64,000 nt of DNA from Nitrospiraceae bacterium (GTDB lineage: Bacteria; Nitrospirota; Nitrospiria; Nitrospirales; Nitrospiraceae): positions 160,001 to 224,000 of the forward strand of contig JBFWWG010000005.1 of the NCBI GenBank assembly GCA_050246315.1, read 5' to 3'. Below the pieces are notes generated by a model that did not search any database, was not told where the DNA came from, and saw nothing but the letters and a program-made list of their open reading frames with translations. This document shows positions 3,664-44,463 of this stretch, piece after piece. The stretch's first letter is position 1, and the number at the start of each line of letters is the position of its first letter. Position numbers and translations under genes: made by a program.

Positions 3664-3739
3664 GGGGGGCTAGCTCAGCTGGGAGAGCACTACGTTCGCA
3701 ACGTAGGGGTCGCGGGTTCGACTCCCGTGCCCTCCACCA
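3664..3739 (+). tRNA. tRNA-Ala (anticodon CGC)
   Basis: Full cloverleaf GGGGGGC...GCCCTCC-A-CCA; anticodon arm CTACG-TT-CGC-AA-CGTAG; T loop TTCGACT. Confidence 0.97.
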
Positions 3740-3900
3740 TACCTTGCTTGCCTAGTACCGCGGGCTCATCAGGCGCAGCCTTCTTCCTTGCGCCCGCAGA
3801 TAGACATCTCCAGTGAATTCGTTTTCTTGGTTTAACCTGCCAACCTTCGGTTGATGCGGCGGCTCTTCAGATGAGGCCTCTTATCCTTACCGCCGGAGGG
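3737..3900 (-). repeat. tRNA-Ala-linked array of structured repeat units (2 clear units, ~98 bp period; weaker relics to ~4330)
   Basis: Minus strand CTGCGGGC..GAAGGCTGCGCCTGATGA..GCCCGCGG..GGTATGG abuts the tRNA CCA. The second unit contains CAACCGAAGGTTG (3841-3853). Confidence 0.85.
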
Positions 3901-4574
3901 ACAGCTTCAGTCCAGCCCATCCTATTCCAATCCGCATTTCGTGAGATCCGGCGTCGATTCAACGGTATATCGCTGTTGACCTCGGCCGATCGACACCGAT
4001 AGGGTCCGTCTTAGAGGCCTGATTGCCTTTACCCTTCCACGAGTGTGGACACCTCGATGATCTCGGAATCGGCGCTAAGATCTTGCGGTTGCTGGCCGAG
4101 TCATTCGTCACGATCCTACAGGTATCCGGCCATGCCAAGAACGCGGCAAGCGGTTGGTGCATCTAATCCAGCGAGAGGTCCCCGTCTGGAAGGACGGGGT
4201 GAGGGCATGGTTCAGCGCTTTGCGCTGGACAAGTGCAGCTTGCATTGGAAGGAGACTTCGCCGGTCAGGGCGGGGTCTTCATGGCGAAACTCGCCAGTCC
4301 GCTTGTTTCATCGTCGGCGAGGGAAGACCTGACCTTATTTTGGCATCCCTGATCTGAGCGAGTGATGATAACCGCGTTGACTAATCGGTTGTCTGTGACC
4401 GCCGAGGAATGAACGGAAAAGAGCGAATTCGCACCGTCAGAACCGTGCGAAATCACACATTGAGGGAATTCTTCAAGGCGTGCACGGTATGTGCCTGGCC
4501 AGGCGGCGACCTGGCGCGACAGTTGCTCAATCATGCTGGGGTACCTGGTTCTGAGCCCTGCCAGTGTCTAAACA

Positions 4575-5177
4575 ATGAGAGAATTTTTGCAACCACTGGG
4601 TCTTCTCCTCATGGCAGGATGTGCTACGGCAATGCCGGCGTTGCCGGACTTGCCGAGGCATGTGGAGCGTGTCCCTCCAGGGACTGCAGTTGTCGTTGGC
4701 CATGTCATCACGGTTCTGCTCGGCCCTACAACCCGGATCTATAATCCGACATTGCATTTTTTTGAATTGATGAACAGCAACACACATGACCGGATTCGGG
4801 TCGACCTGAGCAGCGATGATGCTTGGTTTGTGCTCCCACTACCGGTGGGAAGCTACGAGGTCACCCTGCTCCAAATTGCGGAAGGCGCATTTTTGGCGAA
4901 TGCCGGCCTTAACTCGCGGTTTCATGTGGAAGAAGGCCTCACATTCGTCGGAACGTGGCGCCTGGGAATTGAATCTCCTCAATATGATCGGGAGGTTATC
5001 ATCTCAGTCGTGACAGACAATGAAGTTCACATCCGTGAGAAACTTGCTCCGTATTATTCGGTGATCGATCAATCTCTTGCCTTCAATCTGCTCAGTCCAG
5101 CAACCTCCGAGACCAGACTGTATGAGGTTCCACCGTATCCTCGATACTGGTGGTTTAAGCGCCATCATACCTCGTAG
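4575..5177 (+). CDS. Hypothetical lipoprotein
   Basis: 200 aa ORF; signal peptide with lipobox MAGC. Confidence 0.75.
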   Translation: MREFLQPLGLLLMAGCATAMPALPDLPRHVERVPPGTAVVVGHVITVLLGPTTRIYNPTLHFFELMNSNTHDRIRVDLSSDDAWFVLPLPVGSYEVTLLQIAEGAFLANAGLNSRFHVEEGLTFVGTWRLGIESPQYDREVIISVVTDNEVHIREKLAPYYSVIDQSLAFNLLSPATSETRLYEVPPYPRYWWFKRHHTS

Positions 5178-5261
5178 CTCGACACGATCTGTATCCTGTC
5201 ATTGAGGTCGAATGGGCGGTCACCCAAATTCGCCCTCGGGGTATGGATATTGCTTTATCCT

Positions 5262-5292
5262 AATACTAGAACTCGTTCTCAATTTCAATTTG
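5262..5292. promoter_or_regulatory. AT-rich Fur-box-like operator (tentative)
   Basis: AGAAC-TC-GTTCT dyad and GAAATT-GAGAAC-GAGTTC hexamers (minus strand) directly upstream of the porin/ApbE operon; imperfect match to the Fur consensus. Confidence 0.3.
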
Positions 5293-5301
5293 AGCCGCAG
5301 C

Positions 5302-5484
5302 ATGAACAAGAGGCCGTGTCACGAAATGTGCTGCCTTTGCGGGCGTCTTGTTGCGAGGTGGGAGAAGAGCGGCATTGAGTTGAAGTGTAAGCGCTGTAAA
5401 CGAATCGTGGTGGTTCGAGTCGAGGGTACCCAGTCAGCGAGATTACCCCGCACAGATCCCGCAGGAGATTCAGAAGTCATGTAA
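5302..5484 (+). CDS. Small zinc-ribbon protein (Mu Com-like)
   Basis: CCLCGRLVA...IELKCKRCKR pattern resembles the Com-family zinc ribbon; 60 aa. Confidence 0.55.
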   Translation: MNKRPCHEMCCLCGRLVARWEKSGIELKCKRCKRIVVVRVEGTQSARLPRTDPAGDSEVM

Positions 5485-5554
5485 TCGAGAAGAAGCGGTC
5501 TCAACTCTAGAGGACCATTGCGTCCCAGCAGATTTCCTATGAAAGGAGGAATCG

Positions 5555-7012
5555 ATGGGACGCGTATGGGTTGTTGTGATGTTGTTGTGTTTCGGTATGC
5601 TGAGCGGCCAAATTGTAGCTGCGGAGGATGTCGACGAGCGGTTGAAGAAGTTGGAGGAAGCCGTTGAACAGATGAAGCAGCGAGAATCACGCGAACGAGA
5701 GGTAGAGGGACAGCCCCCGGCGACGCATCCGGGTGAGACGCCGAACCTCCAACAGATGTCGGCTGAGGGGCAGGGCGCTGAGCGCAAATATGGGTCAATT
5801 ATGCAGGGGTCGGGAAAATTGATTTACGCCAAACCCTTCGTGACAAGTCCAAAGGCCATCGTGGGCGGGTATATGGACGTTGAGTACATCAATCGCGCTC
5901 ATCAGGGAACGCCCAGCACTATCGATGTGCATCGGTTTGTCCCGTTCATTTACGCTGACGTGAGCGAGCACGTCAAGATGGCCGCTGAGATCGAAATTGA
6001 ACATGGCATTTTGGAGAGCTCCTCGGTGCCGCACAGTGAAGTCAGCCTGGAGTTCGCCACGCTTGATTTCTTGATGAATGAAAAAATCAACCTCAGAGCC
6101 GGTATCATTCTGTTGCCGGTCGGCAAATTCAATCTGATCCATGACGCGCCATTGCGCGATCTCACGGAGCGGCCGCTGGTCACCCAGTTGCTGTATGGGT
6201 CGGTCTTGGCAGAGACCGGAGCCGGGTTCTACGGCACCTTCTATCCCTCTGCGCGGTCGAAGCTCGACTACGAGTTGTATGTCACGACCGGGTACAACGG
6301 CTATGGTAATTGTCAAGCAGGAAGCGCACAGGCCAATAGCCTTAACTGTGTCGCTCAAATCACGGAGCTGTCAGGTGTGGCCAATGCACGTCAACGGAAG
6401 TCCGACATCAGCAACGGGTTCGATAACAACAACGGCAAGGCGGTCGTCGGCAGGGCGGCCTTCAGTCCATTCCTGGGTGCCGAAGTGGGTCTCTCAGGCC
6501 ATTACGGCACGTATGACCCATTTGGGCAACGTCATTTGGGCATCTGGGCCGTGGACTGGACACTTGTCCGTGGTCCGCTGGAAATCATCGGAGAATCCAT
6601 CTGGACCTACGCACAGGACAATGCGTTGAACCTAAACGGCACTGCATGTACGAACGCCACCTCCATCGGTGGTATGGCGCCGGGGCACTTCTGTCCCCAG
6701 CGGATGCAAGGGTATTACATCCAGAGCAACTATCATTTTCTGCCACAGTGGATGACCAGGCTCGCGCCTTCCTTTTTCCGGCCGGAGATCTCGACGCTGA
6801 CAGCCATGGTGCGATGGGAGCAAGTAAATACGAATAAGGATATGGGAGGTGGGCTCGGAGATCTTCAGCGACTCACGTTGGGACTCAATTACCGACCAAC
6901 GGAAGATACTGTTTTCAAATTTGATTATCAGTATAGTCCGGAGGCGGTGAACCGGAACTTGCAGCGGATTCATGACACAGCCGTGCTGCTGTCAGTCGCC
7001 ACGTACTTCTAA
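5555..7012 (+). CDS. Outer-membrane beta-barrel porin (OprO/P-like) with N-terminal coiled coil
   Basis: Strong RBS AGGAGG, signal peptide, short coiled coil, alternating amphipathic strands, C-terminal ...SVATYF (Bam-type signal). Confidence 0.8.
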   Translation: MGRVWVVVMLLCFGMLSGQIVAAEDVDERLKKLEEAVEQMKQRESREREVEGQPPATHPGETPNLQQMSAEGQGAERKYGSIMQGSGKLIYAKPFVTSPKAIVGGYMDVEYINRAHQGTPSTIDVHRFVPFIYADVSEHVKMAAEIEIEHGILESSSVPHSEVSLEFATLDFLMNEKINLRAGIILLPVGKFNLIHDAPLRDLTERPLVTQLLYGSVLAETGAGFYGTFYPSARSKLDYELYVTTGYNGYGNCQAGSAQANSLNCVAQITELSGVANARQRKSDISNGFDNNNGKAVVGRAAFSPFLGAEVGLSGHYGTYDPFGQRHLGIWAVDWTLVRGPLEIIGESIWTYAQDNALNLNGTACTNATSIGGMAPGHFCPQRMQGYYIQSNYHFLPQWMTRLAPSFFRPEISTLTAMVRWEQVNTNKDMGGGLGDLQRLTLGLNYRPTEDTVFKFDYQYSPEAVNRNLQRIHDTAVLLSVATYF

Positions 7013-7074
7013 GCGGGAGTCGAGATTGACCGACCGTCCAGGCCCATCATGTCACGGATGAAGAAAGGCGCTAT

Positions 7075-7539
7075 ATGAGAAGTCGTCTCATCGTGGTGAT
7101 CGGTCTCAGCGCGCTGTTCGCAGGGTGTGCGCTGTTTCCGAAGGATCATTACGACCATTACCTGGTGTGTCCCTATGACACCGTGTGGACCGCCGCCACT
7201 TACACCATGAATATTTTCCCGCCCAAGAAGCAGGATAAAGATGCTGGCGTGATTGAAACGGGCTGGACTGAGATGGGAGGCGACATGCGCGCAGGATACG
7301 GAATCTTTCGGCGCACAACCACGGGATTTGGCAATAAAGAACGTGCGCGAATGATCTTGACCGTGAAGAGGGTCGATGAGGTGACGAAGGTGGAGTTGAT
7401 TGAAAATAGGGAGCGGTGGCATCTCAAGGGTGGTGTGACGAGTCAGGCGACTCGGTGGTGGCCGATCGAGCCGTCTGAGGAGGCGCTGGCGGCGGTCATG
7501 ACCCGCCTGAACACCAAGCTAAAGGATCAAGGATGTTGA
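7075..7539 (+). CDS. Hypothetical lipoprotein (BamC-like helix-grip type, tentative)
   Basis: Lipobox FAGC; DKDAGVIETGW motif. Confidence 0.7.
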   Translation: MRSRLIVVIGLSALFAGCALFPKDHYDHYLVCPYDTVWTAATYTMNIFPPKKQDKDAGVIETGWTEMGGDMRAGYGIFRRTTTGFGNKERARMILTVKRVDEVTKVELIENRERWHLKGGVTSQATRWWPIEPSEEALAAVMTRLNTKLKDQGC

Positions 7540-8216
7540 CCTTCATCGCCTATCACCTTGGGACTCTCGCCGTGGTGAGCCTTCTGAGCGCCACCTCCCT
7601 CTGGGCTGAGCAAGTCTGGGACGCCGAGTTGAAACGCTATTTGACCCCTCAGGAAATGGGGCAGGAGGATGTTTACCTCACGGAAGACGAAGCGGCTCGG
7701 CTGATGTTTCCGAAATCCGATCGTATCGGTCGAGAGGTCATGCGGTTGCCTCCTGAAAAGAAACAGATCGTCGAAGAACGCATTGGGTGGCATTTCCCAG
7801 AAGAACAATTCACGGTCTTTATCGGAAGGACGGAGGATAGGATTGACGGATATGCTGTGGTTCAGAACACCATCGGCAAGCATAAGCCGATCACGTATAT
7901 GGTGGGCGTCGATCCCAACGGCGAAGTGCTGAATATCGAAGTGCTAGTGTATCGAGAATCACGTGGAAGCGAAGTGCGCACCAAACGGTTCAATGCTCAA
8001 TACGAAGGGAAAACGGTTTTCGACCCGATACGGATGAACAAAGACATTATTAGTATCAGCGGGGCCACGATGTCTGTCCGCTCCCTCAGTGCGGGGGTCA
8101 AGCGGGCGCTCGTCATTGTCGATGAGATCTATCTCAAACCACTCGGAAACGGCAGTGACAGCGCACATGTTCAAAAGCGTCAGCAGGGCTTTTGGAAAGA
8201 CCTCTTCGGGTTTTAG
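7533..8216 (+). CDS. Exported FMN-binding domain protein (flavinylation substrate)
   Basis: Signal peptide; YRESRG and ISGATMS containing the [S/T]GA[S/T] flavinylation motif. Confidence 0.88.
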   Translation: MLTFIAYHLGTLAVVSLLSATSLWAEQVWDAELKRYLTPQEMGQEDVYLTEDEAARLMFPKSDRIGREVMRLPPEKKQIVEERIGWHFPEEQFTVFIGRTEDRIDGYAVVQNTIGKHKPITYMVGVDPNGEVLNIEVLVYRESRGSEVRTKRFNAQYEGKTVFDPIRMNKDIISISGATMSVRSLSAGVKRALVIVDEIYLKPLGNGSDSAHVQKRQQGFWKDLFGF

Positions 8217-8235
8217 TTGCGTTGAGATCGCATCG

Positions 8236-8739
8236 ATGCGGAATTTTAATTCGCGTTTCCGACTCCGTGATACGGACCGACACATCCGCCTCCTCTACAC
8301 CTTCTTCCTCTTCTGCATGTTCGGCGGGTTTATGTTCAGCGTGTTTTGGGCGCACAGTATGACGGGACTCTCTCCCCAGGGCATTGCTGATCACTATCTC
8401 GGTTCCGACGCGACGTTTGGCGAGCCGATGTCGTTTCGAGAATTGGCGGAAATCACGCATTTTCACTTGTTTACCATGCCTGTTGTGTTCATGATTCTAG
8501 TTCATGTGTTGTACCTGACCAAGGCAAGCAATCGAACGAAGGTGTGGATGACGTGGGCAGGATTCGGTGGGGTTCTGCTCGATGTGATCTCACCGTGGTT
8601 GATCAGCTACGTCTCGCCGGTCTTCGTCATCACGATGCTGACAGGAGACGTGCTCATGGTTGTTAGTTTCTTGGTGATGATGGTGATTCCGATGTATGAA
8701 ATGTGGGTTCATCAAGCACCGCTGATGGGCTCCAAATGA
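8236..8739 (+). CDS. Four-TM inner-membrane protein, possibly heme b-binding
   Basis: Four hydrophobic segments; His residues in WAH, THFH and LVHV; translationally coupled to apbE (ATGA overlap). Confidence 0.75.
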   Translation: MRNFNSRFRLRDTDRHIRLLYTFFLFCMFGGFMFSVFWAHSMTGLSPQGIADHYLGSDATFGEPMSFRELAEITHFHLFTMPVVFMILVHVLYLTKASNRTKVWMTWAGFGGVLLDVISPWLISYVSPVFVITMLTGDVLMVVSFLVMMVIPMYEMWVHQAPLMGSK

Positions 8740-9884
8740 AGTATGCGTGTGGCAGGCAGGTCTGCAAACCGCTGCTGCGGGCATTGCGCTGCTTCATACT
8801 GATGGTGGCATTACATGATCAGTCGGGATGGGCGGCGGACGACTCCATACCCGTTCAGGTTGTGAGGCGCAGCCAGGTGCTTATGGGCACCATCGTGCAG
8901 GTCACAGCCATGGGTGCAAACGAGCAGGTGGCCGGGTCGGCCGCCTCGGCCGCGCTCGCTGAAATTCGACGGCTGGAAGCCTTGTGGAGCACATGGATAC
9001 CAGGAAGCGAGGTCTCCCGGATCAATGCCGCGGCTAGTCTCAAAGCTGTGACCGTGAGTCCCGAGACTCTGGCACTCCTTCAGTGGTCCCTTCATGTCGG
9101 GAGATTGACGCATGGGGCCTTCAACATCGCCATCGGACCGGCCATGGACGCATGGAACTTCTCAGGTCAGCCTCGAATCCCGGAGGTGGCGGAGCTTGCT
9201 CGAGTGAAGCTCCTCACCGATCTTTCTCAGTTGAAAGTCGATGAACAGAACCGAACGGCCTTTCTGTCTCGGTTGCACATGCGGATCGATGTAGGAGGTA
9301 TTGGAAAGGGATATGCCGCGGATCTGGCTGTGGAGGTCATGCGACAAGCTGGTGCGTCGGCAGGAGTTGTGGCGTTATCAGGGGATATCAAGACGTTCGG
9401 TGAGCTGTCCGACGGACAGCCGTTTTTGTTCGGAGTGCGCCATCCCCGTGAGGAGGGCAAATTGCTGGCTCGCGTGGAGCTTATAAATGAGGCGATCTCA
9501 ACGGCAGGGGATTACGAGCGGTTCTTCGAACAAGAGGGCAGGAGATACCATCATATCCTGGATCCACACACCCTGTGGCCAGCTCGTGGTTGTCAGAGCG
9601 TGACGGTGGTGGCATCGCAAGGTGTTGTGGCCGATGGCTTGGATACCGGAATTTTTGTGCTCGGACTGGAACGCGGCCTCGAGTTGGTAGAGCGATTGCC
9701 GGAGGTTGAAGCGATCATTGTTGATGATGAAGGCCAAGTGTGGGTTTCATCCGGCCTAAAAAACCGTGTGCACCTTGAAGCTGATCCTGGAGGGAGCGGC
9801 CGACCATCACAATCGTCGGCGGCGGATCAACGCCACCATTTGTCCGTTCGCTCCCGAACATACCAGGATTTGCCCGGTGGGTAG
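8736..9884 (+). CDS. apbE: FAD:protein FMN transferase ApbE
   Basis: MGT, SEVSRIN, DVGGIGKGYAAD, STAGDYER, HHILDP, ADGLDT. Confidence 0.95.
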   Translation: MKYACGRQVCKPLLRALRCFILMVALHDQSGWAADDSIPVQVVRRSQVLMGTIVQVTAMGANEQVAGSAASAALAEIRRLEALWSTWIPGSEVSRINAAASLKAVTVSPETLALLQWSLHVGRLTHGAFNIAIGPAMDAWNFSGQPRIPEVAELARVKLLTDLSQLKVDEQNRTAFLSRLHMRIDVGGIGKGYAADLAVEVMRQAGASAGVVALSGDIKTFGELSDGQPFLFGVRHPREEGKLLARVELINEAISTAGDYERFFEQEGRRYHHILDPHTLWPARGCQSVTVVASQGVVADGLDTGIFVLGLERGLELVERLPEVEAIIVDDEGQVWVSSGLKNRVHLEADPGGSGRPSQSSAADQRHHLSVRSRTYQDLPGG

Positions 9885-9927
9885 GTCGCCTCCACTCTGA
9901 AGCTGGAAGCAAGAGACGCGTGCCAGG

Positions 9928-10253
9928 CTAGGCCACGTAGGTGATGTGGATCCGATCGAGGTACTCAACCAGTTTTGCGAGTTGCCGCTCAATACTGTCT
10001 CGGTCGCGCCTGGCCGCGGCCAGTTCCAAGGCAGCTCCGATGTCGCCGATGCCGTCGAATCCGTACCCCCCTCCGTCTCCCTTCATGCGATGTCCGAGCG
10101 TCTGAATCGTCGGGAACTCGGCCTGTCCCAGCGCGAGGCGGATCTTCTCAATGTCCTTCCTTCGATTCTCCAGGAATCCCGGAATCAGGTGCTTGAGCGA
10201 TTCATCAATTTCCACGCGAATGGGGGCCTGTCGGTCGCTCTGCATGCGCGGAT

Positions 10254-10260
<7 letters not shown>
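9928..10260 (-). CDS. Hpt phosphotransfer protein
   Basis: [13 protein letters not shown]pt motif; follows the hybrid kinase. Confidence 0.9.
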
Positions 10261-13277
<3,017 letters not shown>

Positions 13278-13361
13278 AGGCCTGTGCGCATGCCAAAATC
13301 CGTTGAGTTGGAGCCCGAAACCAAGCTGGTCTGTGGGGCGCGGCGAAGGCGAGCTGATCTC

Positions 13362-14333: not shown

Positions 14334-14392
14334 CGGGGGCGCTCGCGGACACTATGGGGAGCAAGGTTCGATACCCGTCGGAATGCTAGCAG

Positions 14393-15073: not shown

Positions 15074-15153
15074 GCTTTTCGTGTGGAGTCAGGGCGATCG
15101 CAATCGATCGTCTGTACCGGAGCAAGTATAGCAGGGTCGAATGGTCGGAGGGG

Positions 15154-15600: not shown

Positions 15601-15798
15601 AGGCGGCCTCCTTGTATGGCGGCGATGGGAACCTCGTCACCTTAGCTAATCCCGGAATGGCCGTCAATCGGAGATGTCGATCCAAAGCGCCCTGTTCGTG
15701 GCGTTGATCCAGGACATGCAGTATGATTTGGTCGCATGCGGCATAGGGTGACCAACCCAGGTGATCAAGAAGGTTGGGGGCATCACTGGACAAGTTAG

Positions 15799-15862
15799 CT
15801 CCGGCCGTCGAGCGCAACGCAATTGGAGGGACGGCCGGTTCAACCGTGAGGTGGGAAGGAGG
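15799..15862 (+). repeat. Single variant structured repeat unit in a 5' UTR, ending at the Shine-Dalgarno
   Basis: CT-CCGGCCGTC...GACGGCCGG-TTCAACCGTGAGGTG..GGAGG, 4 nt before ATG 15867. Confidence 0.65.
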
Positions 15863-15866
15863 CGCC

Positions 15867-16097: not shown

Positions 16098-16140
16098 CGG
16101 CTATCCGGCCATCAACACAACCGGGGCGCCAATCGATAGA

Positions 16141-19780: not shown

Positions 19781-19840
19781 CCCTCCATACCAAGCTTGCT
19801 TCATCCGGCCGCCCATCGGATTCTTCTTTGCGTCTGGAGA
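19781..19840 (-). repeat. Single structured repeat unit in the GPx 5' UTR, ending at the Shine-Dalgarno
   Basis: CCATACCAAGCTTGCT (19785-19800) is identical to 26187-26202 at the tRNA-Pro 3' end. Confidence 0.75.
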
Positions 19841-19883
19841 TGACTCCTCCAGTGATTTCACCTTCTTCCGATGCTTGATCGAA

Positions 19884-26112: not shown

Positions 26113-26765
<653 letters not shown>

Positions 26766-26994
26766 CAGTGATCCCATCGTCGTCAACCAGTCTTGCCTCA
26801 CACTCTCCATGATGCGTACAAACCATCAGTCTGTGCCCTAGCCCCCATCTGAGCAGAGAAGGGCCTGGACATGGTACCGTGTCGTTGGCCACCTCATGTG
26901 GAACGATGCGCGTCAGCTCGCCTCTGTGACCGCACGAATCGCCCATTTGCTTGTGCCAGGAGGATGTTGTGCTAATCTGCCAGGAGCATTGACC

Positions 26995-27276
26995 ATGAGC
27001 GAGTTGATTCGTGCGCGTGTGCTGGTAAGTGGAATTGTACAGGGAGTGGCATTCAGGGCATTTACGCAGCGTCAGGCCCTTCGTCTGAACCTTCATGGTG
27101 GTGTCCGGAATCTGGACGACGGCCGCGTGGAAGCCATCGTCGAAGGCTCGCGGAAGAACGTGGACGCGTTGATCGTGTTGCTGGGGCAGGGGCCGCCTAT
27201 GGCCAAGGTCGAGCGGGTGGAGGTCGAGTGGAGTTCACCGGCCGGCAGTGAGCAACCCTTTCAGATTTGGTACTAG
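26995..27276 (+). CDS. acyP: Acylphosphatase
   Basis: SGIVQGVAFR, GGVRNLDDGRVE, GPPMAKV. Confidence 0.93.
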   Translation: MSELIRARVLVSGIVQGVAFRAFTQRQALRLNLHGGVRNLDDGRVEAIVEGSRKNVDALIVLLGQGPPMAKVERVEVEWSSPAGSEQPFQIWY

Positions 27277-27700
27277 CAGGATGTTGAAACAGTCCGCCAG
27301 CTTTGTTGGGGTACCCACTGTTGTACGTTCGTCGTGCCATGAGTCTCATGCGATGAGGCTCACCCTGAAGGTGTTTCTCCGTTTACCAAGATCAATCCGA
27401 CGAGCGAACGGATCACACGAACTGCGGATGAGACACGAAGCTTCCTTGTGGATTGCTCCAGCGGCGTCAATAGGGACGGGCTTTGCCTGATGAGCCGTTG
27501 GTTCACACGACGTGCGGTGTGCGCGCCTCACCACTTCGCTGGCTGCGCTCGCGAATGTAGGAAGGCGCGTCTCGGCGCAACGGGGTCGGGCAGGTGAGAA
27601 TACCGGCCTCTGTGAACATCCTGTGGGCTCTTCCGACTCCATGTGCGAGCGAGTGCGGGTCTATGATTGCAGGAGTGCCAAACAGTTTTTCAACGGCCTG
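27277..27700. mobile_element. MITE-like element A (424 bp), carrying two structured repeat units
   Basis: TIR CAGGATGTTGAAA / TTTCAACGGCCTG flanked by CTAG (27273-27276 and 27701-27704); internal second end GAACATCCTG at ~27614-27623. Confidence 0.8.
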
Positions 27701-27704
27701 CTAG

Positions 27705-29650: not shown

Positions 29651-29794
29651 CCGCCAACCCTGACTGGGTGCGGGCTTCTCGATTGGGAGGAGCCAGAAGT
29701 ACCGGCGGATCGCGCCCTTGTAAAAGGTAAGACGGCGTGTTATAGATTCCGATCTTTTTCAGCCCCCACGCGCAACGCCTCACATGAGGACCCC

Positions 29795-31250: not shown

Positions 31251-31259
31251 GGAGTCAGT

Positions 31260-31445: not shown

Positions 31446-31873
31446 CCCACATTGATTCATAACCGCCTCGACGGCAACCACGATTCGACCGGGTGCTCTT
31501 CTCCATGTAATGAGTCTACGATCTCGATATGAACAGGTGAAATGTCACGAACCAGCATGAATCATGGAAGCCAATCCGCATTATTCATGAACGATTCTAC
31601 TGCGACTGCGTATACGCCGCCGCGACAAGCCTGGCCAGTCGAAGGGATTTCTCCGGCGGCGACAATGAAGAGGGGCTCGGCCCGACGAGCCGTCGGCTCA
31701 CATGAAGTGCGGTATGGCGCACGGGCTCACCACTGGCGACCCCGACATACTGTTTCAAGTATGCCGTGGTCTCTCGTGGCTCCGCGTGGGGGTACCCATT
31801 GCTTTTCCGATACAATGGGTCCAACGCGTGGCGTCTCCGGACTTTCGTCACGAATCTTCATGAATAATGTGGG
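31446..31873. mobile_element. Family-D MITE-like element(s), probably two tandem copies; carries one structured repeat unit (31648-31717)
   Basis: CTAG-CCCACATTGATTCATAA ... TTCATGAATAATGTGGG-CTAG; internal CATGAATCATGG/CCAA/TCCGCATTATTCATGAACGATTC junction at ~31556-31597. Confidence 0.78.
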
Positions 31874-31948
31874 CTAGGTACTGGCGGACCCTCTGTTGCT
31901 GAAGAAGATCTGATTCGGACTGATGACAATTTCGGGAGGAGGAGACGA

Positions 31949-32362: not shown

Positions 32363-32505
32363 GTCTGGCCGCGAGAGAACTTCGACCAACCGTCCCGTTT
32401 GACAGTCTGATTTTCCGATGCGTAAGCTTACAAGGAACGTTACCGCGGGCGATGTGGGCCGGCGGCTATTGGGCAGAGGACAAGGAGAGAAGAGGCTTGT
32501 GACGC

Positions 32506-32840
32506 GCCTTCTCCGGCTGCCGCAAACCATGTGGGTGGCAACCGATTCAACCGCAGGTGATGGAGGCAAGCGATGCAGACCCGTTACAGTGTTTTTCTCC
32601 GCCCGACATGACCCATGTGATGAGTGGCCGATCCAACGAAGGTTCGTACGGAGAAAGACGAGAGAAATCCTGTGGGGGATGGGCTTCGGCCACCAGGAGC
32701 AATCGAAGGGCGGCTGGTTCAACCGAAGGTTGGATTCAATATGAAAAGAGGCCAAGAAACTGTAGGGTTTCTCCGGCGGCGTCAATGGGGAGGGGCTGCG
32801 CCCAATGTGCCGCCGGCTCAACCGAAGGTTGGTATGGAGG
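32506..32840 (+). repeat. Four-unit array of the structured repeat in the SPFH gene leader
   Basis: CAAC(C)GMAGGT hairpins at ~32548, 32634, 32720 and 32819 (86/86/99 bp period); last unit ends GGTATGGAGG, 5 nt before ATG 32846. Confidence 0.85.
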
Positions 32841-32845
32841 ACCTT

Positions 32846-33688
32846 ATGCGGAATGGAATGCAGGCCTGTGTCTTGACGTCCGCCATGCTGGGCGTGATGA
32901 CCCTCTCCGCGGGCTGCGCCCTCGTGGCGATCGATGCGGGACATGAAGGAGTCATGGTCGAAAAGCCATTCTTCTTCGGACATGGGGGAGTCGATCCCGA
33001 CCCGGTCAAGACAGGCCGCCAGACGGTGGCCATCACGACGCAGGTGATCGATGTGGATGTGCGTCCGATCCAATATTCGGAGCACTTCGACATCATCTCG
33101 TCGGAGAACGCGCCGGTGTCGTTTGACGCCTTCATGATCGCGAATGTGATCGAGGGACGGTCGCCGGATCTCATCAGCCGATTCGGACCGAACTGGTATG
33201 CGAACAACGTGAAGGAGGCCTTTCGTACGATGGTCCGGGAAGAGGTCCAGAAATACCCGCTCTTTCAGTTGACCACTGATCCCACCACCCGGACGAAATT
33301 GCAGGAAGCTATCGCCCAGCAATTGCGCGTGAACTTGCTGGAGAAGCAGAACATCCCGGTTCGTCTCAATCGGGTCGTCGTCGGCAGCATCTTGCCACCC
33401 AAAGGCGTGCTGGAACAGACCGCCCAAACGATCATTCAGGAGCAGCGCCGTATCACGATGATCGAATTCCAGAAAGCCGAAGAGGCCCGGGAGAAGGCCG
33501 AGAAGCAGCGTGGCATCGCAGACCGCGCCTATCGGGAGGCCCTAGGGCTCACCGCGCCGGAATTCGTGGATTTGCGCCGCATCGAAGTCCAGAAGGAGAT
33601 CGTGCAGCATTCGCCGTCGGCCCTGACCGTCATCATGGGATTGGAGCGAATGGGGATCAACCTCCCTCCGTTAGGATCGGAGAAATAA
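32846..33688 (+). CDS. SPFH/Band 7 domain protein (probable lipoprotein)
   Basis: LSAGC, IDAGHEGVMV, C-terminal EQ/EA-rich coiled coil; RBS GGAGG. Confidence 0.85.
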   Translation: MRNGMQACVLTSAMLGVMTLSAGCALVAIDAGHEGVMVEKPFFFGHGGVDPDPVKTGRQTVAITTQVIDVDVRPIQYSEHFDIISSENAPVSFDAFMIANVIEGRSPDLISRFGPNWYANNVKEAFRTMVREEVQKYPLFQLTTDPTTRTKLQEAIAQQLRVNLLEKQNIPVRLNRVVVGSILPPKGVLEQTAQTIIQEQRRITMIEFQKAEEAREKAEKQRGIADRAYREALGLTAPEFVDLRRIEVQKEIVQHSPSALTVIMGLERMGINLPPLGSEK

Positions 33689-33719
33689 CGCCGACCTGTT
33701 GTGGCACGGTGGCGAGATC

Positions 33720-33762
33720 ACACAGAGCCGGGTGAGAGGTGGTCTCTCACCCGGCTCTGTGT
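33720..33762. terminator. Perfect 19-bp stem hairpin between convergent genes
   Basis: ACACAGAGCCGGGTGAGAG-GTGGT-CTCTCACCCGGCTCTGTGT; no U-tract, so its function is uncertain. Confidence 0.5.
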
Positions 33763-33864
33763 CCGTATCGAGCGATCGTTGATCTGGCAGGCTGCGGAAC
33801 AACTCTTTTCGACACCTGCAATCGTCACGGACAACGAGGTTTCAGACGACAATGGCCACCCCGG

Positions 33865-33991
33865 CAGAATGTTCAAAAAGGCCGTTCAGCAAGGCTGCAG
33901 CAAGCGAGGAGGCGAGGCGACCTCAGGTCCGTACGTTGAGGCTCTGAGCGATGGGAGAACGCCGCTGGCGGACTTCTTTTTCAGCATCATG
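33865..33991. mobile_element. Short (127 bp) family-A MITE-like element
   Basis: CAGAATGTTCAAAAAG ... CTTTTTCAGCATCATG-TTAG; its right end (reverse complement ...AGTCCGCCAGC) matches the left end of 27277-27700. Confidence 0.78.
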
Positions 33992-34765: not shown

Positions 34766-34837
34766 AGTGCCGCCGCCATCGGGGTTATCTTACCAACCGC
34801 ATGCTCGCCGAGCAATTGCCGCCTTGGTCCCGCGAAG

Positions 34838-35794: not shown

Positions 35795-35931
35795 CGCCGG
35801 AATGCTTATCGGTGACCAGGAGGGACTGACCTCACATCGTTATGCCGGCGCCCGATTGTACTGCTGTCCGGGCGGTGCCGTCATCTTGACTTGACAGGCG
35901 GGTGTTCATCTCGCAGACTTCTACAGATTCC

Positions 35932-39401: not shown

Positions 39402-39410
39402 GTACGCATC

Positions 39411-40838
39411 ATGCCATCCAAGGCCAAAATTCTGGTGGTCGATGACGACGAGGTCGCCCGCGAGCTGCTGGTGGAGGCGCTCCAGAAGGAAGGCTACGAC
39501 GTCGAGAGTTTCGGGAACGGACTGGACGCGATCGGACGAGGCCAGCAGATTCCGGTCGACCTCGTGCTGACGGACATCCGGATGGGAGCGGTAGACGGCT
39601 ATCATGTACTCCGCGAGTTCAAACGCCTCAGGCCGGGCACGCCCATCGTGCTGCTCACGGCTTTCGGTTCGTTGGAAGGAGCGATAGAAGCAATCAAACA
39701 GGGTGCGTATGACTATCTGGCGAAGCCCTTCCGCAAGGAAGAGGTCTGCTTGGTTGTTCAGCGCAGCCTCGATCACGCGAGGTTATTGAGGGAAAACAGC
39801 CGATTCCGCGAGGAACTGCGGGAACGGGCGGTGCTGACCGGGCTTGTAGGGAGCAGTCCGGCCATGTTGGAGGTCTACAAGCTCGTGGCGCGTGTGGCGC
39901 AGGGAAAGAGCACCGTGCTACTGGAGGGCGAGAGCGGTACCGGCAAGGAACTCGTGGCGCGGGCCATCCATGGGAACAGCCCCCGACATGGGATGCCGTT
40001 TGTGCCGGTCAACTGTGGAGCGCTGCCCGACACGTTGTTGGAATCCGAAATGTTCGGTCATGAGAAGGGCGCATTTACCGGTGCCGTCGGCGTCAAGCAT
40101 GGGCTGTTCGAAACCGCGGACGGAGGCAGTTTATTTCTGGACGAGATCGGAGAATTGGGCCAAGCGTTGCAGGTGAAACTGCTCCGCGTGATGCAGGATC
40201 AGGAAATCCGCCGGGTGGGAAGCACCAGTTCAATCAAGGTGGACGTGAGGTTGATCGCCGCGACGAATCGCGATCTGCCGACCATGGTCGCAGAGGGGAG
40301 GTTTCGGGAAGACCTCTTCTATCGCCTCAACGTTGTGCGGATCAAGCTGCCGCCGCTTCGAGAACGGCGCGAGGACCTGGCGATGTTGGCCCACCATTTT
40401 TTGCAGAAGTATACGGGGACGCCCGACCATCCGGTGCGTGGGTTCGCCAGGGAATCCCTCCTGTTGCTCGACCAATACTCGTGGCCGGGCAACGTGAGGG
40501 AATTGGAAAACGCTGTCGAGCGGGCTGTGTCCTTGAGCCACGGTCCGGTAGTTTTGCCGGAAGATCTCCCGGAATCCGTCCGGCGCAAGCCGCCCGCTGC
40601 AATGTCGTCTGCGGGATCCGCGACAGAAAAGGAAGACCGCTCGGAATCGCTGTTAACGCTCGATGAAGTGGAACGGCGACATTTGCTGCGCGTGCTGAAA
40701 GAAATGAAAGGCAACAAGGTGAAGACGGCGAAAATTCTTGGGATCGATCGTCGGACGCTCTACCGCATGGCCGAGCGTTTCGGCATCGAGTTGGGGGAGG
40801 ACGGCGAGGGGACCGGAGAGTTCCCTACAAGAGCTTGA
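39411..40838 (+). CDS. Sigma-54-dependent response regulator (NtrC/AtoC family)
   Basis: [25 protein letters not shown], Fis-type HTH. Confidence 0.96.
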
Positions 40839-41298
40839 GCTCGTATCTGATCAGACGGAGATAGTGTTCGGCGCTCTGTTGGAGCGGCGGCTCTGAAGGA
40901 GTCCAGCTTCCCGCGAGCGATCCCTTGCTCTCATGGATCACCGTCAATACGAGTTTGGTGGAGTGATCGCCCTCTCCGTTCAGATCGGCCTCGGCCTGAG
41001 TGCGGCCCACTCCGAAGCGAACGCGTAACATCCAATCCCATGGGGCGCGAATTTCCTCTCGATAGCCGGTTCGAATCAATTCGGATCGGTTCTCGGACCT
41101 GCTCTGGGAGGATTCGACCGTATAGCCCTGGGAAGCGAAGACATTCAGCACTGCGTCCCGGACCTGTTCCACTGGAGCCTCGAACCGGGCTTCTACTGAG
41201 TCGGCCGGCTGGGTTCCGGAAGGCGAGGCACACCCGTAGGAGAGCGCGATAGCCACGATCCAGGCCCACTGGAGTTGACGACACGACAAGGACGTCAT
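40825..41298 (-). CDS. Hypothetical lipoprotein
   Basis: Lipobox SYGC; IRTGY motif similar in style to 7075-7539. Confidence 0.7.
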   Translation of the reverse strand: MTSLSCRQLQWAWIVAIALSYGCASPSGTQPADSVEARFEAPVEQVRDAVLNVFASQGYTVESSQSRSENRSELIRTGYREEIRAPWDWMLRVRFGVGRTQAEADLNGEGDHSTKLVLTVIHESKGSLAGSWTPSEPPLQQSAEHYLRLIRYELKLL

Positions 41299-41305
41299 GT
41301 TCGGA

Positions 41306-41548
41306 TTAACTCGCCAAACGGTGAACCAGATGCGTCTGGGTTTGAGTCACGCCTTCGATGGCGTGAATCTTCTGCAACACCAGCGAGGTCAGTGCGTCCT
41401 GATCGGGCACCTCCACGAGCGCAATAATATCGGGCTTGCCCCAGCAGGTATCAATCGTTTTCATCTCTTTGATTTGGGAAAGAAATTTCACCACAACCCG
41501 GGTTTGTCCTGGAGCCACGTTGATTAGAATGTAAGCACGGTCGGCCAT
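41306..41548 (-). CDS. Stand-alone Lrp/AsnC ligand-binding (RAM) domain protein
   Basis: RAYILINV..G, G.PDII, I.GV..T.T pattern; no HTH. Confidence 0.88.
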   Translation of the reverse strand: MADRAYILINVAPGQTRVVVKFLSQIKEMKTIDTCWGKPDIIALVEVPDQDALTSLVLQKIHAIEGVTQTQTHLVHRLAS

Positions 41549-41672
41549 TTTGCTACTCCGCAGAGAGGATGAGCACCATGCAGCGCGAGGACACTAACGG
41601 ATCGTGATCGATGAAGTCAACGTGGCAGCGGGTAAAAACGACGAACGAGTGCCAGCCGATCCCGGCAGTCAT

Positions 41673-43151
41673 TTATTTGGGGGCGATAAACACCTCGACG
41701 ATCTGGGCGTCACTGACACGCGTCAGCTCCGCCTCAAGGCCGCGAGGATTACCGATGCGGCCATCCGGATCGTACACAAAGCAGAACAGAGTTTGATGTC
41801 CCGTGGCAGGAAATGCTATGGCATCGGCCGTCACCCGCTCGGCGACTTCACGGGACCCGATCCCGCTCTTCGTCATCCCCGCCAGAACGGCGAGATGGTG
41901 ACTTGGCAAGAGCGACATGGCGCGCGGAGTCGCTGTTGGCTCACCGGCGGACCATTCCCTTTGAGCCACCTCGTCGAACTCGTATCGTAGCAACACATAT
42001 AAGAGATCTTGTACGTCCTGCTCGTCCTGCACATCCAGGGGAGTCCGATGATTTCCCCGGAGGCGGAGCTGCCGGACAACGGCGTGGAACCTTGTACAGA
42101 CCTTTCGGACGAGATCGAGAGGATCCTCCGGCCCGCTCGCACTCCAGGCGGGTGGATCGGCGACCTGTCCGGCAGCACGTGCTGCGGTGGCCTGGGGTGC
42201 AGCGGCCTCGGTCGTGAGCTCAGCAACCCGTGCCGGGAGTGCGGAGGAGGGTGGCGGTTCGTGAAAAACCGAGTTAGCTGGGCGCTCAAATGCGAGCCCA
42301 TGGGACGGATGCCCCGCCCCGGCGGTTGGATGCGACACAGGTGGTGGAGGATCGGAAAGGGGCCCCGGGGCTGCAGCAGGCGCGTCTCCCTGATGTGCAG
42401 AATCCCGAACCTGCTCACGGGGCTCGGGTATGCTTGGGACGCCCGGACCTTGGCTGATCCCGGGCGATGCGGGAGAAGGGTCTGTCTGGAGCGCCGGGGC
42501 CTGATGCGAAGGCGGAAGCCCGCGAAGGGCCATGCCCTGGTCCGGTAACGGCGTCGGAGGCTGGGCGACAAGCGTCGGTTTTTCGGACGGTGGACTCGGA
42601 AGGACAGACCGCTCAGCGAGAGCGGTGGGGTGGTCAGCCAGAATGGTGGTCGTCGGAGGGGGGGCGACGAGAGGAGCGGGCAAGGTGGGCATGATTTCAG
42701 CGAGTGTAGCAGATGAGGACGAGGACACAGCCATGACGACCGTCGCGGCTGGCGGCGGGGCATCTGGCGCTGGTCGAACGGCGGGGGTGTGGCTGGGAGG
42801 GGGTGGCGCGATCCCCTGCAATTCCAACTTTTTTCGCTCCAATTGAGCGATCAATGAATGGAGCAACGAAATCGTCTCGGCCACTTCCGACGGAGAGCTG
42901 GTGCGGAGGTGATGCGTTTTCCACTGATGGAATTCAGGGGACCGCTCTCCGAAGATGCACTTGATGCACTCGCGAACCTGGAGCTCGGCCCGCGCTCGCA
43001 CGGCATCGCGATATGGGAACCCTTCCTGTCGCAGATCCTCAACCTGAGTGAGTTGATCTTGCAGCTTGCGGATGTTCTCATTCACCGCTTCGAGAGAGGC
43101 GGTATGCTTGGCCTTGGTGCGGGCGGGATCCTTGGCAGCGGCTCTGGGCAT
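41673..43151 (-). CDS. Protein with helical N-domain, Pro-rich linker and C-terminal REase_DpnII-MboI-like domain (apparently inactive)
   Basis: DEQDVQDLLYVLLR..FDEV..REW and LFCFVYDPDGRIGNPRGLEAEL recall that family; the expected D...ExK residues are not seen. Confidence 0.65.
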   Translation of the reverse strand: MPRAAAKDPARTKAKHTASLEAVNENIRKLQDQLTQVEDLRQEGFPYRDAVRARAELQVRECIKCIFGERSPEFHQWKTHHLRTSSPSEVAETISLLHSLIAQLERKKLELQGIAPPPPSHTPAVRPAPDAPPPAATVVMAVSSSSSATLAEIMPTLPAPLVAPPPTTTILADHPTALAERSVLPSPPSEKPTLVAQPPTPLPDQGMALRGLPPSHQAPALQTDPSPASPGISQGPGVPSIPEPREQVRDSAHQGDAPAAAPGPLSDPPPPVSHPTAGAGHPSHGLAFERPANSVFHEPPPSSALPARVAELTTEAAAPQATAARAAGQVADPPAWSASGPEDPLDLVRKVCTRFHAVVRQLRLRGNHRTPLDVQDEQDVQDLLYVLLRYEFDEVAQREWSAGEPTATPRAMSLLPSHHLAVLAGMTKSGIGSREVAERVTADAIAFPATGHQTLFCFVYDPDGRIGNPRGLEAELTRVSDAQIVEVFIAPK

Positions 43152-43276
43152 CGGACGATGGATGCGGCGTTCGTCGGTTCGGACAATTACATGGGTGAAA
43201 GTCTAGCCGAGGGCTTCCGGACCGGCAAGAAACATGGTGATTTGTGCACCGATCTGGCAGACGAGCCAGAGGGACG

Positions 43277-43621
43277 CTAGCCGTGCCAGGCAATGTCCGG
43301 ACCGGCAGATCCGCCATGGTTGCGGAGTCGCCGGATTCCGGACAAACGTTCCTTGGCGGCTCGGGAGTACTTGAGAAACTCTACCCCGAAAGTAGACCCT
43401 TTGACCCAACGCACGCGGGCCAGAGCGATCGCGATGGGGTCCTCGCCACCCTGGCATTCGATTTGGAGAGAGAGGTAGGTTCCGATGACGGGAACGACCT
43501 CACTTCGAACGGCGCAGCCTGGGCCGGACAGATCGACAAGCCTGCCTTTTCCGGCAATATCGTCTCCGCAGAATCGAACGGGATACCGCAGAGACACCCG
43601 GTGATGAGATCTGGCGCGCAT
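43277..43621 (-). CDS. PilZ domain protein
   Basis: RSHHR and DLSGPG (RxxxR / DxSxxG), ARVRW, FGVEF. Confidence 0.88.
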   Translation of the reverse strand: MRARSHHRVSLRYPVRFCGDDIAGKGRLVDLSGPGCAVRSEVVPVIGTYLSLQIECQGGEDPIAIALARVRWVKGSTFGVEFLKYSRAAKERLSGIRRLRNHGGSAGPDIAWHG

Positions 43622-43868
43622 AGCGTGTCCTTCGAACTGATGCCACAGAAACCGGCTTCAGAGGATTGGGCCAAGATGATCCTCACCAAATGTAGTCGAT
43701 AATTCAGGATTCAGCCAGTAAACGGGTGGATCCGGTCGTTGTGCGGGACAAGGTATGGGGGAGTCAGGGGAGGGAGGGCACGATCAGCTCCGAGACTTTG
43801 GACGTGATGGGCGATTCTCAAGGCCCGTCGGTCCCTGTTGTAGCGGAGAGGAATGGTCGATACCATCC

Positions 43869-44168
43869 CTATCCGTTCTGAAGCTGCTCCAGTTGCTCTC
43901 TCGCGCTCCCCTCATAACGGAGGAACTCAAGGCCGAGCCGACCTTCGCGGACCCAACGGACCTTGGCCAGTGAAATGCAGACAGGCTGGGATTCCTCCTG
44001 GACCAGGATTTCGAGGGCGACATAGGCCCCCTGTTGGAGCGAGGTGCGGCTTTCGATGGCACAGCCCGGAGTGCACAGGTTGACAAGCTGCCCCCGGCCT
44101 GCCGACTTATCTCCCAAGAATCGAATGGGAAGCTGGAGCAGTGTTCGTGGGCTCGATCGGAAATTCAT
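43869..44168 (-). CDS. PilZ domain protein
   Basis: RSSPR and NLCTPG, AKVRW, LGLEF; paralog of 43277-43621. Confidence 0.85.
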   Translation of the reverse strand: MNFRSSPRTLLQLPIRFLGDKSAGRGQLVNLCTPGCAIESRTSLQQGAYVALEILVQEESQPVCISLAKVRWVREGRLGLEFLRYEGSAREQLEQLQNG

Positions 44169-44300
44169 GATGGTTATGCGGATCAGGGTTCATGATGAAA
44201 TGGGCGATGCCGACGCTGAGACCATGCTACGACAATGGGATCGAAATCGGGAAGAGGACGAAAGTAGGGGGCTGTGAAGGATCAATCGTACCGGAAGGTC

Positions 44301-44463
44301 CTCTCCGGCGGCGGCAATGGGGAGGGCTGCACCCGATGAGCCGCCGGTTCACACGAAGGTGAATTATCTGGAAGTGAAGGAATCACTTGAGGGGTTCTCG
44401 GCGGGCGGCAATAAAGAGAGGCTCCGCCTGAATAGCCCGCCGATCAACCGAAGGTTGGTATGG
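44301..44463 (+). repeat. tRNA-Arg-linked array of two structured repeat units
   Basis: CCGGCGGC/GCCGCCGG (44305-44347) and TCGGCGGGC/GCCCGCCGA (44398-44443), then CAACCGAAGGTTG-GTA-TGG, where TGG is the tRNA CCA. Confidence 0.88.

Follow-up and report, generated by a model that had tools for sequence, protein, structure and literature searches.

Results

The window, i.e. the whole 64-kb stretch of Nitrospiraceae DNA analysed here, carries a real dispersed repeat that behaves as mobile DNA and not as a gene-specific RNA switch. Its unit of about 95 bases has three hairpins and one fixed end, GGTNT|GG, which lies flush on tRNA or tmRNA CCA ends, on the native Shine-Dalgarno (SD) sequences of unrelated genes, within two MITEs or in the repeat itself. 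This docking, exact to the base at both CCA ends and SD sequences, is the main feature and was missed by the first-pass annotation, which had listed copies of a covarying multi-stem repeat; all copies it named are present at the positions given, but the unit at 3923-4014 had been overlooked. Units and anchors in the window are as follows:

3664..3739, +, tRNA-Ala(CGC), whose encoded CCA anchors a three-unit array
3740..3825, -, unit flush on the tRNA-Ala CCA, beginning at CCA+1 (E = 1e-20)
3830..3922, -, second unit of the tRNA-Ala array (E = 9e-17)
3923..4014, -, third unit of the tRNA-Ala array, decayed (E = 0.003)
15774..15857, +, short-interior unit directly abutting the SD GGAGG (15858) of a small ORF, also in genomes G001 and G002
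19787..19864, -, short-interior unit directly abutting the SD of the glutathione peroxidase gene (covariance model)
26113..26189, +, tRNA-Pro(CGG), anchor of a five-unit array
26190..26274, -, unit flush on the tRNA-Pro CCA (E = 3e-21)
26305..26372, -, second unit of the tRNA-Pro array, end hairpin decayed (covariance model)
26368..26466, -, third unit of the tRNA-Pro array (covariance model)
26467..26556, -, fourth unit of the tRNA-Pro array, subtype II interior (covariance model)
26548..26678, no strand, unrelated small inverted-repeat element within the tRNA-Pro array, not seen here in G001-G003
26686..26780, -, fifth and distal unit of the tRNA-Pro array (covariance model)
27273..27704, no strand, MITE of family B with two units at its centre, terminal inverted repeats and CTAG ends; site without MITE in G001 and G003
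27353..27432, +, unit within MITE B (covariance model)
27433..27527, +, unit within MITE B (covariance model)
31573..31877, no strand, MITE of family A with one distally truncated unit; copy absent from G001-G003
31627..31722, +, unit within MITE A (covariance model)
32399..32428, +, promoter-like TTGACA-N18-TAAGCT upstream of the SPFH array, conserved in relatives, under the promoter-scan threshold
32486..32568, +, most distal unit of the SPFH 5'-leader array, decayed (E = 0.37)
32572..32656, +, decayed unit of the SPFH array (E = 0.033)
32660..32743, +, unit of the SPFH array (E = 2e-4)
32747..32835, +, reference unit, made up of a purine-rich linker, a weak hairpin H1, TTTCTCC, an 8-bp outer stem enclosing the inner C-TNC-G hairpin, the end hairpin C-GAA-G and GGTAT; directly abuts the SD GGAGG (32836) of the SPFH gene
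44279..44373, +, distal unit of the tRNA-Arg array (covariance model)
44374..44460, +, unit flush on the CCA of tRNA-Arg(CCT) (covariance model)
44461..44537, -, tRNA-Arg(CCT), anchor

A covariance model trained on 40 rows, including 8 of the window's 18 units, recovered 18 units in the window at E < 0.05 plus one weak copy, the decayed fourth unit of the 32.5-kb array (E = 0.37). Relative to the consensus given at first, the minus strand carries the groups at 3.7 kb, 19.8 kb and 26.2-26.8 kb. The source genome (G000) contains 160 matches at E < 0.01, or 164 with a broader profile, against 1 match (E = 0.078) and 0 matches for the two profiles in the reversed genome. The repeat is present in 126/140 Nitrospiraceae genomes, was not detected in the other 14, and had no match in 122 other genomes of the same phylum. 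Viral contigs gave 0 matches to three repeat patterns, and the single match outside Nitrospira in 51 stretches, from an Acidobacteriaceae MAG (L142), has no outer stem and is likely a chance match in coding DNA. Rfam, searched at two thresholds, returned only seven tRNAs for the window and 0 hits at E ≤ 10 for 32400-32900; no family matches the repeat, either at gathering score or with any E-value hit (E ≤ 10). A literature search found no description of the family. The main text of PMC11602168 lacks the word "Nitrospir" and that of PMC11893778 contains "tRNA" and "Nitrospir" 0 times, and the supplements of both might include such repeats.

The stems covary, as the first-pass annotation had claimed. 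In the alignment 91.2% of cells are paired compared with 76.7% in shuffled alignments (0/500) and 20-45% in slid controls, two-sided changes occur at 12 of the 17 stem pairs, and predicted pairs make up five of the six top column pairs by MI-APC (168 distinct genome units). The outer stem occurs in 13 different perfect 8-bp versions among 63 perfect-stem units; single units have modest MFE z-scores (-0.1 to -3.7). The original consensus fits one interior subtype only, and at least three exist, while some of the linkers described as unrelated are duplicated exactly or common to several loci. The unit foot is conserved as TTTCT or TTTAT. The loops are C-GNA-G triloops, carried by the two small hairpins on opposite strands, and AAC/GTT is missing from the end-hairpin variants. 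The unit ends are unrelated to each other in alignment, with no terminal inverted repeats.

At the fixed end the target reads (T)|GG-N-G, and on tRNA and tmRNA genes the element begins at CCA+1. Units stand on the CCA end of 15 of the 47 tRNA/tmRNA genes of G000; further tRNA cases in this genome are Arg(ccg), a Lys gene broken by a contig end, and Ser, once as a displaced 3' fragment and once at a 5' end. The 16S 3' end carries no unit. All 28 SD-type clusters of G000 have an ORF of at least 67 aa starting 2-8 nt past the SD motif, ORF length being the only independent test because the class was defined by SD and nearby start codon. By crude gene calls, only 85 of 573 intergenic TGGAGG sites are located at an SD, as are 168 of 3941 intergenic TGGNG[GC] sites; for the SD preference, sequence by itself is not a sufficient explanation. 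Anchors in other genomes comprised 28 SD and 15 tRNA sites among 56 matches, and 25 SD and 23 tRNA sites among 62. The base-exact junction on varied tRNAs, tmRNA and SD sequences spans 28 of 31 genera. Empty orthologues retain the native GGAGG, and in a few copies the final ATG of the unit may act as start codon. The far end is variable, with loss of target DNA; comparison with empty copies of MITE A and B shows that about 12-21 nt of the left hairpin arm gave way to the unit. The reading direction of units at SD sites is opposite to that at tRNAs. In terms of replication, 18/27 of the SD class are leading and 12/17 of the tRNA class lagging (background: 256/400 genes and 29/42 tRNAs leading); a replication bias was rejected, the counts matching expectation from gene orientation.

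Units within an array run head-to-tail (40 of 40 cases) and never alternate. Proximal units are better paired than their distal counterparts in 18 of 24 arrays and worse in three (p = 3e-4), neighbouring units are often of different subtypes, and internal units in ordinary arrays frequently lack the anchor end. G002 arrays with a G000 orthologue have the same anchor in 17 of 19 cases, and the unit number differs in 11 of these 17. The glutathione peroxidase orthologues have more units, two in G002 and three in G001 (by eye). The early idea of a self-propagating structured element is supported by the fixed junction, nesting, layering and array turnover. tRNA-targeting integrative islands with tyrosine integrases also use tRNA 3' ends and stack in tandem, whereas the repeat unit duplicates no tRNA sequence. 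An island-arm origin was rejected: islands displace the unit plus a tRNA 3' fragment, and island ends are not units. Neither is a CRISPR-like array indicated, as neighbouring subtypes differ, exact duplicates carry the linker and flanking ORFs contain no cas.

Small GIY-YIG nuclease cassettes sit at the same CCA+1 position as the repeat unit. Among 129 distinct small GIY-YIG hits, 57 have a tRNA or tmRNA at most 450 nt upstream, most with a hairpin leader from CCA+1, a share inflated by a second search seeded with tRNA-anchored proteins. A unit lies directly downstream of the gene in 19 of the 129 hits (16 of these without anchor end) and upstream in five, all readable as layering. Repeat units and cassettes cut into each other in alternating layers; at L345, L337 and L376 the unit lies on the CCA, ahead of a cut or decayed cassette leader. 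The full form, a nuclease gene behind the unit's own leader, was not found among the best-listed hits of 371 family genomes. No GIY-YIG gene led by an intact unit occurs near the unit-centred loci L012-L250 or the G000 units, and the 190 ORFs that read out of 697 unit ends include none. Cassette leaders are not matched by the unit profile; the C-TTC-G/C-GAA-G loops are all that the repeat and these leaders share. The sole small GIY-YIG gene of G000 (C1:182001-182303) has a different repeat on its flanks, and several high-copy genomes have one Pfam GIY-YIG match, UvrC-sized where listed (G001, G003, G016). NTS-flanked Ssn-like genes occur separately in Nitrospiraceae (L303, L297, L320).

Discussion

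We propose, with a probability of roughly 0.5, that the repeat is a non-autonomous, gene-less Nitrospiraceae member of a class of CCA+1 hairpin elements, whose coding forms carry a single-domain GIY-YIG protein of ~90 aa, and that an Ssn-like ssDNA nuclease mobilises it in trans. The link between the repeat and such an enzyme is unproven. According to the cited passages of PMC11893778, SsnA cleaves ssDNA upstream of its hairpin in a strand-specific manner, and cleavage of one strand at this place fits the position of the repeat's fixed end. The same passages describe many-copy oriented hairpin repeats and small single-domain GIY-YIG proteins, as found here, and in them the authors (Chenal et al. 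2025) propose a mobile-element origin for Ssn/NTS. In contrast to the NTS consensus, the repeat has ~95 nt and three hairpins; exact NTS copies in G000 number 0, and no clear cognate gene of the Ssn/NTS kind was found for the repeat.

In the proposed mechanism, an Ssn-like nuclease acting in trans and present only transiently would bind a GNA-loop hairpin and cut a few bases to its 5' side. The 3' end released in this way (..CC or ..CCA) would be extended on a donor copy and then rejoin downstream via microhomology, which would explain why one junction is exact and the other ragged. SD sequences, start codons and tRNA-Ser 5' ends would be secondary look-alike targets. Copies flush on essential sequence would persist because they would be hard to delete, and most recent copy-number change would come from local slippage, unequal recombination and MITE hitch-hiking. 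Docking and layering with nuclease cassettes point to a little-known route of spread for small DNA elements, and the tiny cassettes at tRNA sites probably move the repeat; the co-location at CCA may reflect a shared hot spot rather than a shared enzyme. More tentatively, we speculate that single-domain GIY-YIG ssDNA nucleases, in place of a transposase or recombinase, might drive a class of mobile DNA that spreads by nicking and copying into tRNA CCA ends and ribosome-binding sites; the repeat might be the gene-less, family-wide, high-copy form of this class, its layered stacks recording successive insertions.

A spread without any dedicated enzyme is rather unlikely. Replication slippage and template switching in the host, together with gene conversion, would then act at microhomologies (TGG, GGAGG, tRNA T-arm) on a hairpin that survives only flush on essential sequence, and palindrome correction could yield much of the covariation. 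This would agree with the lack of a resident mobiliser co-distributed with the repeat, with exact tandem duplicates that include the linker, with chimeric units of mismatched stems, with a longest exact match between loci of 72 nt (MITE-borne copies aside) and with mismatches without strand preference (G.T vs A.C: outer stem 50/37, inner 20/37, end hairpin 21/51). However, a base-exact junction on many tRNAs, tmRNA and SD sequences in so many genera is hard to obtain from 3-5 nt of homology, and the nuclease-gene cassettes share the insertion register.

That the repeat is a functional RNA module under selection, such as a 5'-UTR stabiliser, a translation control or an aid to tRNA 3'-trailer processing or termination, is improbable. 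Anchors are stable between relatives, and RNA contigs from two studies begin at 32447 and 32449 and cross the SPFH array into the gene, a weak hint from contigs that carry no level, strand or circle information. Yet opposite strands are transcribed at SD and tRNA anchors, the target genes are unrelated, their orthologues manage without the repeat and 14/140 family genomes show none at all. There is no G.U strand bias, and the triloops are of DNA type. SD sequestration is not supported, as the unpaired fraction of the SD is 0.39 compared with 0.35 in control genes (p = 0.44). Copies do not keep to one strand 5' of functionally related genes, in the manner of a riboswitch or cis-regulator. Due to the unrelated downstream genes, the opposite reading directions, the lack of mismatch strand preference and control-like SD pairing, we do not favour the regulatory ncRNA motif considered in the first-pass annotation.

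Quite improbable is a MITE or PATE of an HUH (IS200/IS605, RAYT, IS91) or recombinase (IS110, IS607, IntI) system. Rolling-circle elements have a one-ended geometry like that of the repeat, whose hairpins are of ssDNA type and which has GG at almost every junction. Against this, Y1 is missing from three of five high-copy genomes and no Y1 locus has full units on its flanks, IntI occurs in 18/140 genomes, target deletions misfit precise recombinases, and 75 ORFs on the far side of arrays gave no such gene save one IS3-like hit. In G000, none of eight Y1 transposases has units on its flanks, and six tyrosine recombinases and four IS110 genes are not bounded by units. Of the partners suggested early on, neither RT nor HUH/RAYT is co-distributed with the repeat; for the suggested recombinase the same holds for IntI, and other recombinases were located in G000 alone. 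As for a MITE, the repeat has no terminal inverted repeats or target-site duplication and its targets lose DNA; it likewise lacks an integron attC core (RYYYAAC..GTTRRRY) and a co-occurring IntI.

Least probable is a SINE-like retroposon, in which tRNA 3' processing would free a trailer ending at CCA+1 and an RT would copy it and jump to, or be primed by, tRNA ends: a fixed and a variable end would suit target-primed reverse transcription too, and G000 has two DGR-type RTs and G001-G003 one RT match each, but RT is found in just 48/140 genomes and is missing from several high-copy ones, an antisense primer would be needed at SD sites, no excess variation at A columns is evident (by eye), and both G000 RTs are DGR cassettes with no unit nearby.

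Among known repeats, REP, BIME and REPIN sequences are likewise GC-rich extragenic palindromes in mosaic arrays with more than 100 copies (PMC3733652, PMC3116915, PMC2817692). The repeat differs from REP/RAYT by its head-to-tail, never alternating arrays and its exact CCA/SD docking; it has no conserved GTAG/CGTC tag (these words occur in the first 30 nt of 17 and 22 of 169 units) and no Y1 gene flanked by or co-distributed with it. Neisseria REP2 and Borrelia IR-A, in the cited passages of Delihas 2011 (PMC3184786), are two-hairpin repeats immediately upstream of genes. REP2 is described there as bringing promoter, RBS and ATG, whereas the SD at our repeat is native, as is the promoter-like site of the SPFH gene, and in contrast to both many copies are reversed on tRNA ends. 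The betaproteobacterial repeat element BRE resembles the repeat in being ~90 nt long, GC-rich, tandem and variable in copy number, with mechanism unknown; by its description in the cited part of PMC3110155, BRE shows no tRNA or SD anchoring.

For many bacterial hairpin repeats the means of spread is not known. Since the repeat has a target defined to the base, an order of insertion that can be read and a candidate enzyme class at shared sites, the suggestion in the cited passages of PMC11893778 that Ssn nucleases act as mobilisers becomes directly testable. If our proposal is true, it would add new ssDNA nuclease specificities and an insertion chemistry whose two ends differ, one being exact and the other ragged; if the enzyme link fails, the repeat is still an undescribed family. 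Its arrays lengthen 5' leaders (~400 nt at the SPFH gene) and can mislead annotation and assembly of nitrifier genomes. In read-derived contigs, the joints seen are explicable by other copies of the repeat.

Structure and distribution of the repeat

The repeat family is real and has probably not been described so far. All copies named in the first-pass annotation were found in the window (G000:C5:160001-224000), where a covariance model trained on 40 units of about 95 bases from the window and relatives recovered 18 units at E<0.05, plus a single weak one. Profile searches of the 4.39-Mb genome returned 160-164 copies at E<0.01, in comparison to 1 and 0 matches in the reversed genome. The proposed survey of Nitrospirota placed model matches in 126 of 140 Nitrospiraceae genomes (28 of 31 genera; this survey counted no more than 29 matches per genome, and a separate search gave at least 138 in the relative G001) and in 0 of 122 genomes of other families in the phylum. 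An exact pattern gave 51 stretches across the genome collection, 50 of which are Nitrospira-group records. Novelty had been made dependent on Rfam, which matched only tRNAs in the window and gave no family for the repeat. Searches of the literature, covering main texts with few subscription papers among them, listed no description of either the family or the CCA-anchored GIY-YIG cassettes.

On the B strand, which is the orientation of the first-pass annotation and the complement of the A strand, a unit opens with a purine-rich variable linker, a weak hairpin H1 and TTTCT or TTTAT. Next come an outer stem of 8 bp and an interior that varies (three subtypes or more), and the unit closes with an end hairpin of 5 bp and GGTNT. 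The compensatory changes of the first-pass annotation stood up to analysis: two-sided changes uphold the pairing. Of the cells 91.2% are paired, a level reached by 0/500 shuffles, against 20-45% in slid controls, and there are 13 distinct perfect outer stems. The covariation scores are inflated by kinship among copies, and palindrome correction in replication could raise them further. The end-hairpin loop is GAA (n=91 units), AAA (n=18) or GTA (n=10), while the inner-hairpin loop is mainly TTC, TGC or TAC, corresponding to GNA on the opposite strand. C-GNA-G triloops form very stable DNA hairpins. In the unit stems G.T and A.C mismatches are roughly equal in frequency, thus neither strand looks like a selected RNA.

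Insertion sites and array dynamics

The 169 hits in the source genome (G000) form 105 clusters, and all 40 multi-unit clusters are arranged head-to-tail. The GGTNT end adjoins four kinds of site, a pattern that recurs in other genomes. The first is the reverse complement of the tRNA/tmRNA CCA end, occupied in 15 of 47 genes in G000, among them 3 of the 7 window tRNAs; the cluster at window 61334-63471 (tRNA-Tyr, Gly, Thr, tuf, tRNA-Trp) has no detectable unit on its four tRNAs. The second is the Shine-Dalgarno (SD) sequence GGAGG, which 28 clusters adjoin; an ORF of at least 67 aa comes after every one of them, and the functions of these genes are unrelated. Since orthologues without a unit have their own GGAGG, the SD is not supplied by the unit. 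Sequence does not account for the preference for SD over other GGNGG sites; our guess is retention where a unit lies flush with essential sequence. The third site is the centre of two MITE families (~45 clusters), and the fourth a GG- or AG-starting site within another unit. In rare cases the unit is anchored on a tRNA-Ser 5' end or a likely start codon, and one copy lies within an open DabA frame. Stretches L034:2803-6852 (genome G313) and L193 carry such a unit in DabA, apparently as an in-frame insertion in a coding gene.

Comparison with empty MITEs shows that, on the far side, the unit took the place of ~12-21 nt. Junctions are identical among the filled copies of a given MITE, so that each family presumably goes back to one old unit insertion that the MITE amplified afterwards. 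Families A and B (window 31573-31877 and 27273-27704) have also gained further small hairpin modules in several places, with some common to both; an empty MITE B copy lies at window 33873-33975.

Anchor-proximal units pair better than distal units in 18 of 24 arrays and worse in 3. Between G002 and G000 the anchor is common to 17 of 19 comparable arrays and unit number differs in 11 of the 17, in a comparison covering 30 of 128 matches of G002, which is 9% contaminated. L064 (G002) connects the flanks of two arrays in another way than G000 does at C9:29173 and C1:537253; either the DNA was rearranged at the repeat or one assembly is wrong. Islands entering tRNA-Ser or tRNA-Arg displace the array along with a tRNA fragment. 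A 6.7-kb island in tRNA-Arg(CCT) of G001 (L023, ~4553-11297), absent from G000, is followed by a displaced 42-nt tRNA fragment and then the array. Behind tRNA-Ser(CGA), the island region G000:C2:507825-524450 (L188) holds integrase, HTH, DDE transposase and HigBA genes with scattered displaced units, and MazEF directly past it; in G002 the array sits straight on this tRNA.

Probable mobility and a possible GIY-YIG link

The self-propagating element of the first-pass annotation remains our preferred reading: junction geometry, polarity and layering are observed, and we put the probability that the unit is mobile at about 0.85. On the A strand the unit junction lies ~5 nt 5' of the end hairpin. 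SsnA, a GIY-YIG protein of 94 aa, binds to a hairpin repeat and cleaves ssDNA on the upstream side of this repeat, in just one of the strands (PMC11893778); the geometry is the same. An enzyme of this kind may cut at the junction, whereupon the free 3' end would be extended by copying one donor unit, or several in a block, and rejoined through microhomology. REP-RAYT and NTS-Ssn are similar in tying a hairpin repeat to an ssDNA-cutting enzyme, but the unit, as tested, belongs to neither.

Whether the unit itself is linked to a GIY-YIG nuclease is evenly balanced. Among 129 distinct small GIY-YIG hits, taken from the top-listed matches of two family searches, 57 lie no more than 450 nt downstream of a tRNA or tmRNA; in most of these a hairpin leader, belonging to one of about four types, starts at CCA+1. 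The profile of the hits matches UPF0213 and SLX1 structures. In 19 of the listed cases a unit lies downstream of the gene, lacking its anchor end in 16 of them, and in L296, L298, L307 and L288 the cut unit starts within ~15 nt of the nuclease stop codon. L345 runs from tmRNA-CCA through an intact unit and a leader that lacks its first part to the nuclease gene and, last, older cut units; L337 and L376 are layered similarly. Both element kinds therefore insert at the same base, each removing the start of the earlier occupant. Against direct partnership count that intact units lead none of the listed nuclease genes, that cassette leaders do not match the unit profile, that small GIY-YIG matches are absent from several high-copy genomes and that the G000 gene is flanked by a different repeat.

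This 101-codon GIY-YIG frame (L251, G000:C1:181650-182750) is flanked by its own CCCTTCGAC-type hairpin repeat family, whose motif occurs 126 times genome-wide, and by a 21-nt tandem repeat, and is a candidate Ssn-type pair separate from the unit. Ssn-like genes between NTS-like palindromes also occur in Nitrospiraceae (L303, L297, L320, L290, L295). Another hairpin element, with an intact tRNA on one side and a duplicated tRNA 3' fragment on the other (L285, L293, L309, L355, L368, L390), often directly precedes a GIY-YIG cassette.

Alternative explanations

A side effect of the unit on expression is possible. RNA contigs X15 and X17 from two studies start at 32447 and 32449 and cover the four-unit array and start of the SPFH gene, and DNA contigs continue beyond these points; this hints weakly at a long 5' leader that contains the four units and follows a native promoter-like site, which the promoter scan did not call. 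A dedicated regulator is unlikely, and the regulatory ncRNA motif proposed earlier is disfavoured by the unrelated downstream functions, by strands that do not look like RNA and by a predicted SD accessibility equal to that of control genes.

The suggested co-distributed RT or HUH/RAYT partner did not emerge, as neither Y1, RT (48/140 genomes) nor IntI (18/140) tracks the unit, and one IS3-like transposase was the sole mobile-element match in a set of 75 ORFs lying beyond the far ends of arrays. The following loci were also noted:

G000:C5:66359-69997 (L009) and G000:C3:243662-247303 (L010), two diversity-generating retroelement-like cassettes; by eye, FGE-sulfatase-like target gene, avd-like gene, 360-aa RT and template-repeat-like region
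G000:C1:515191-516135 and C8:84930-85862, two integron integrases
Window 41673-43151, close to the tRNA-Arg array, a gene with a DpnII/MboI-type restriction nuclease domain and two PilZ genes next to it
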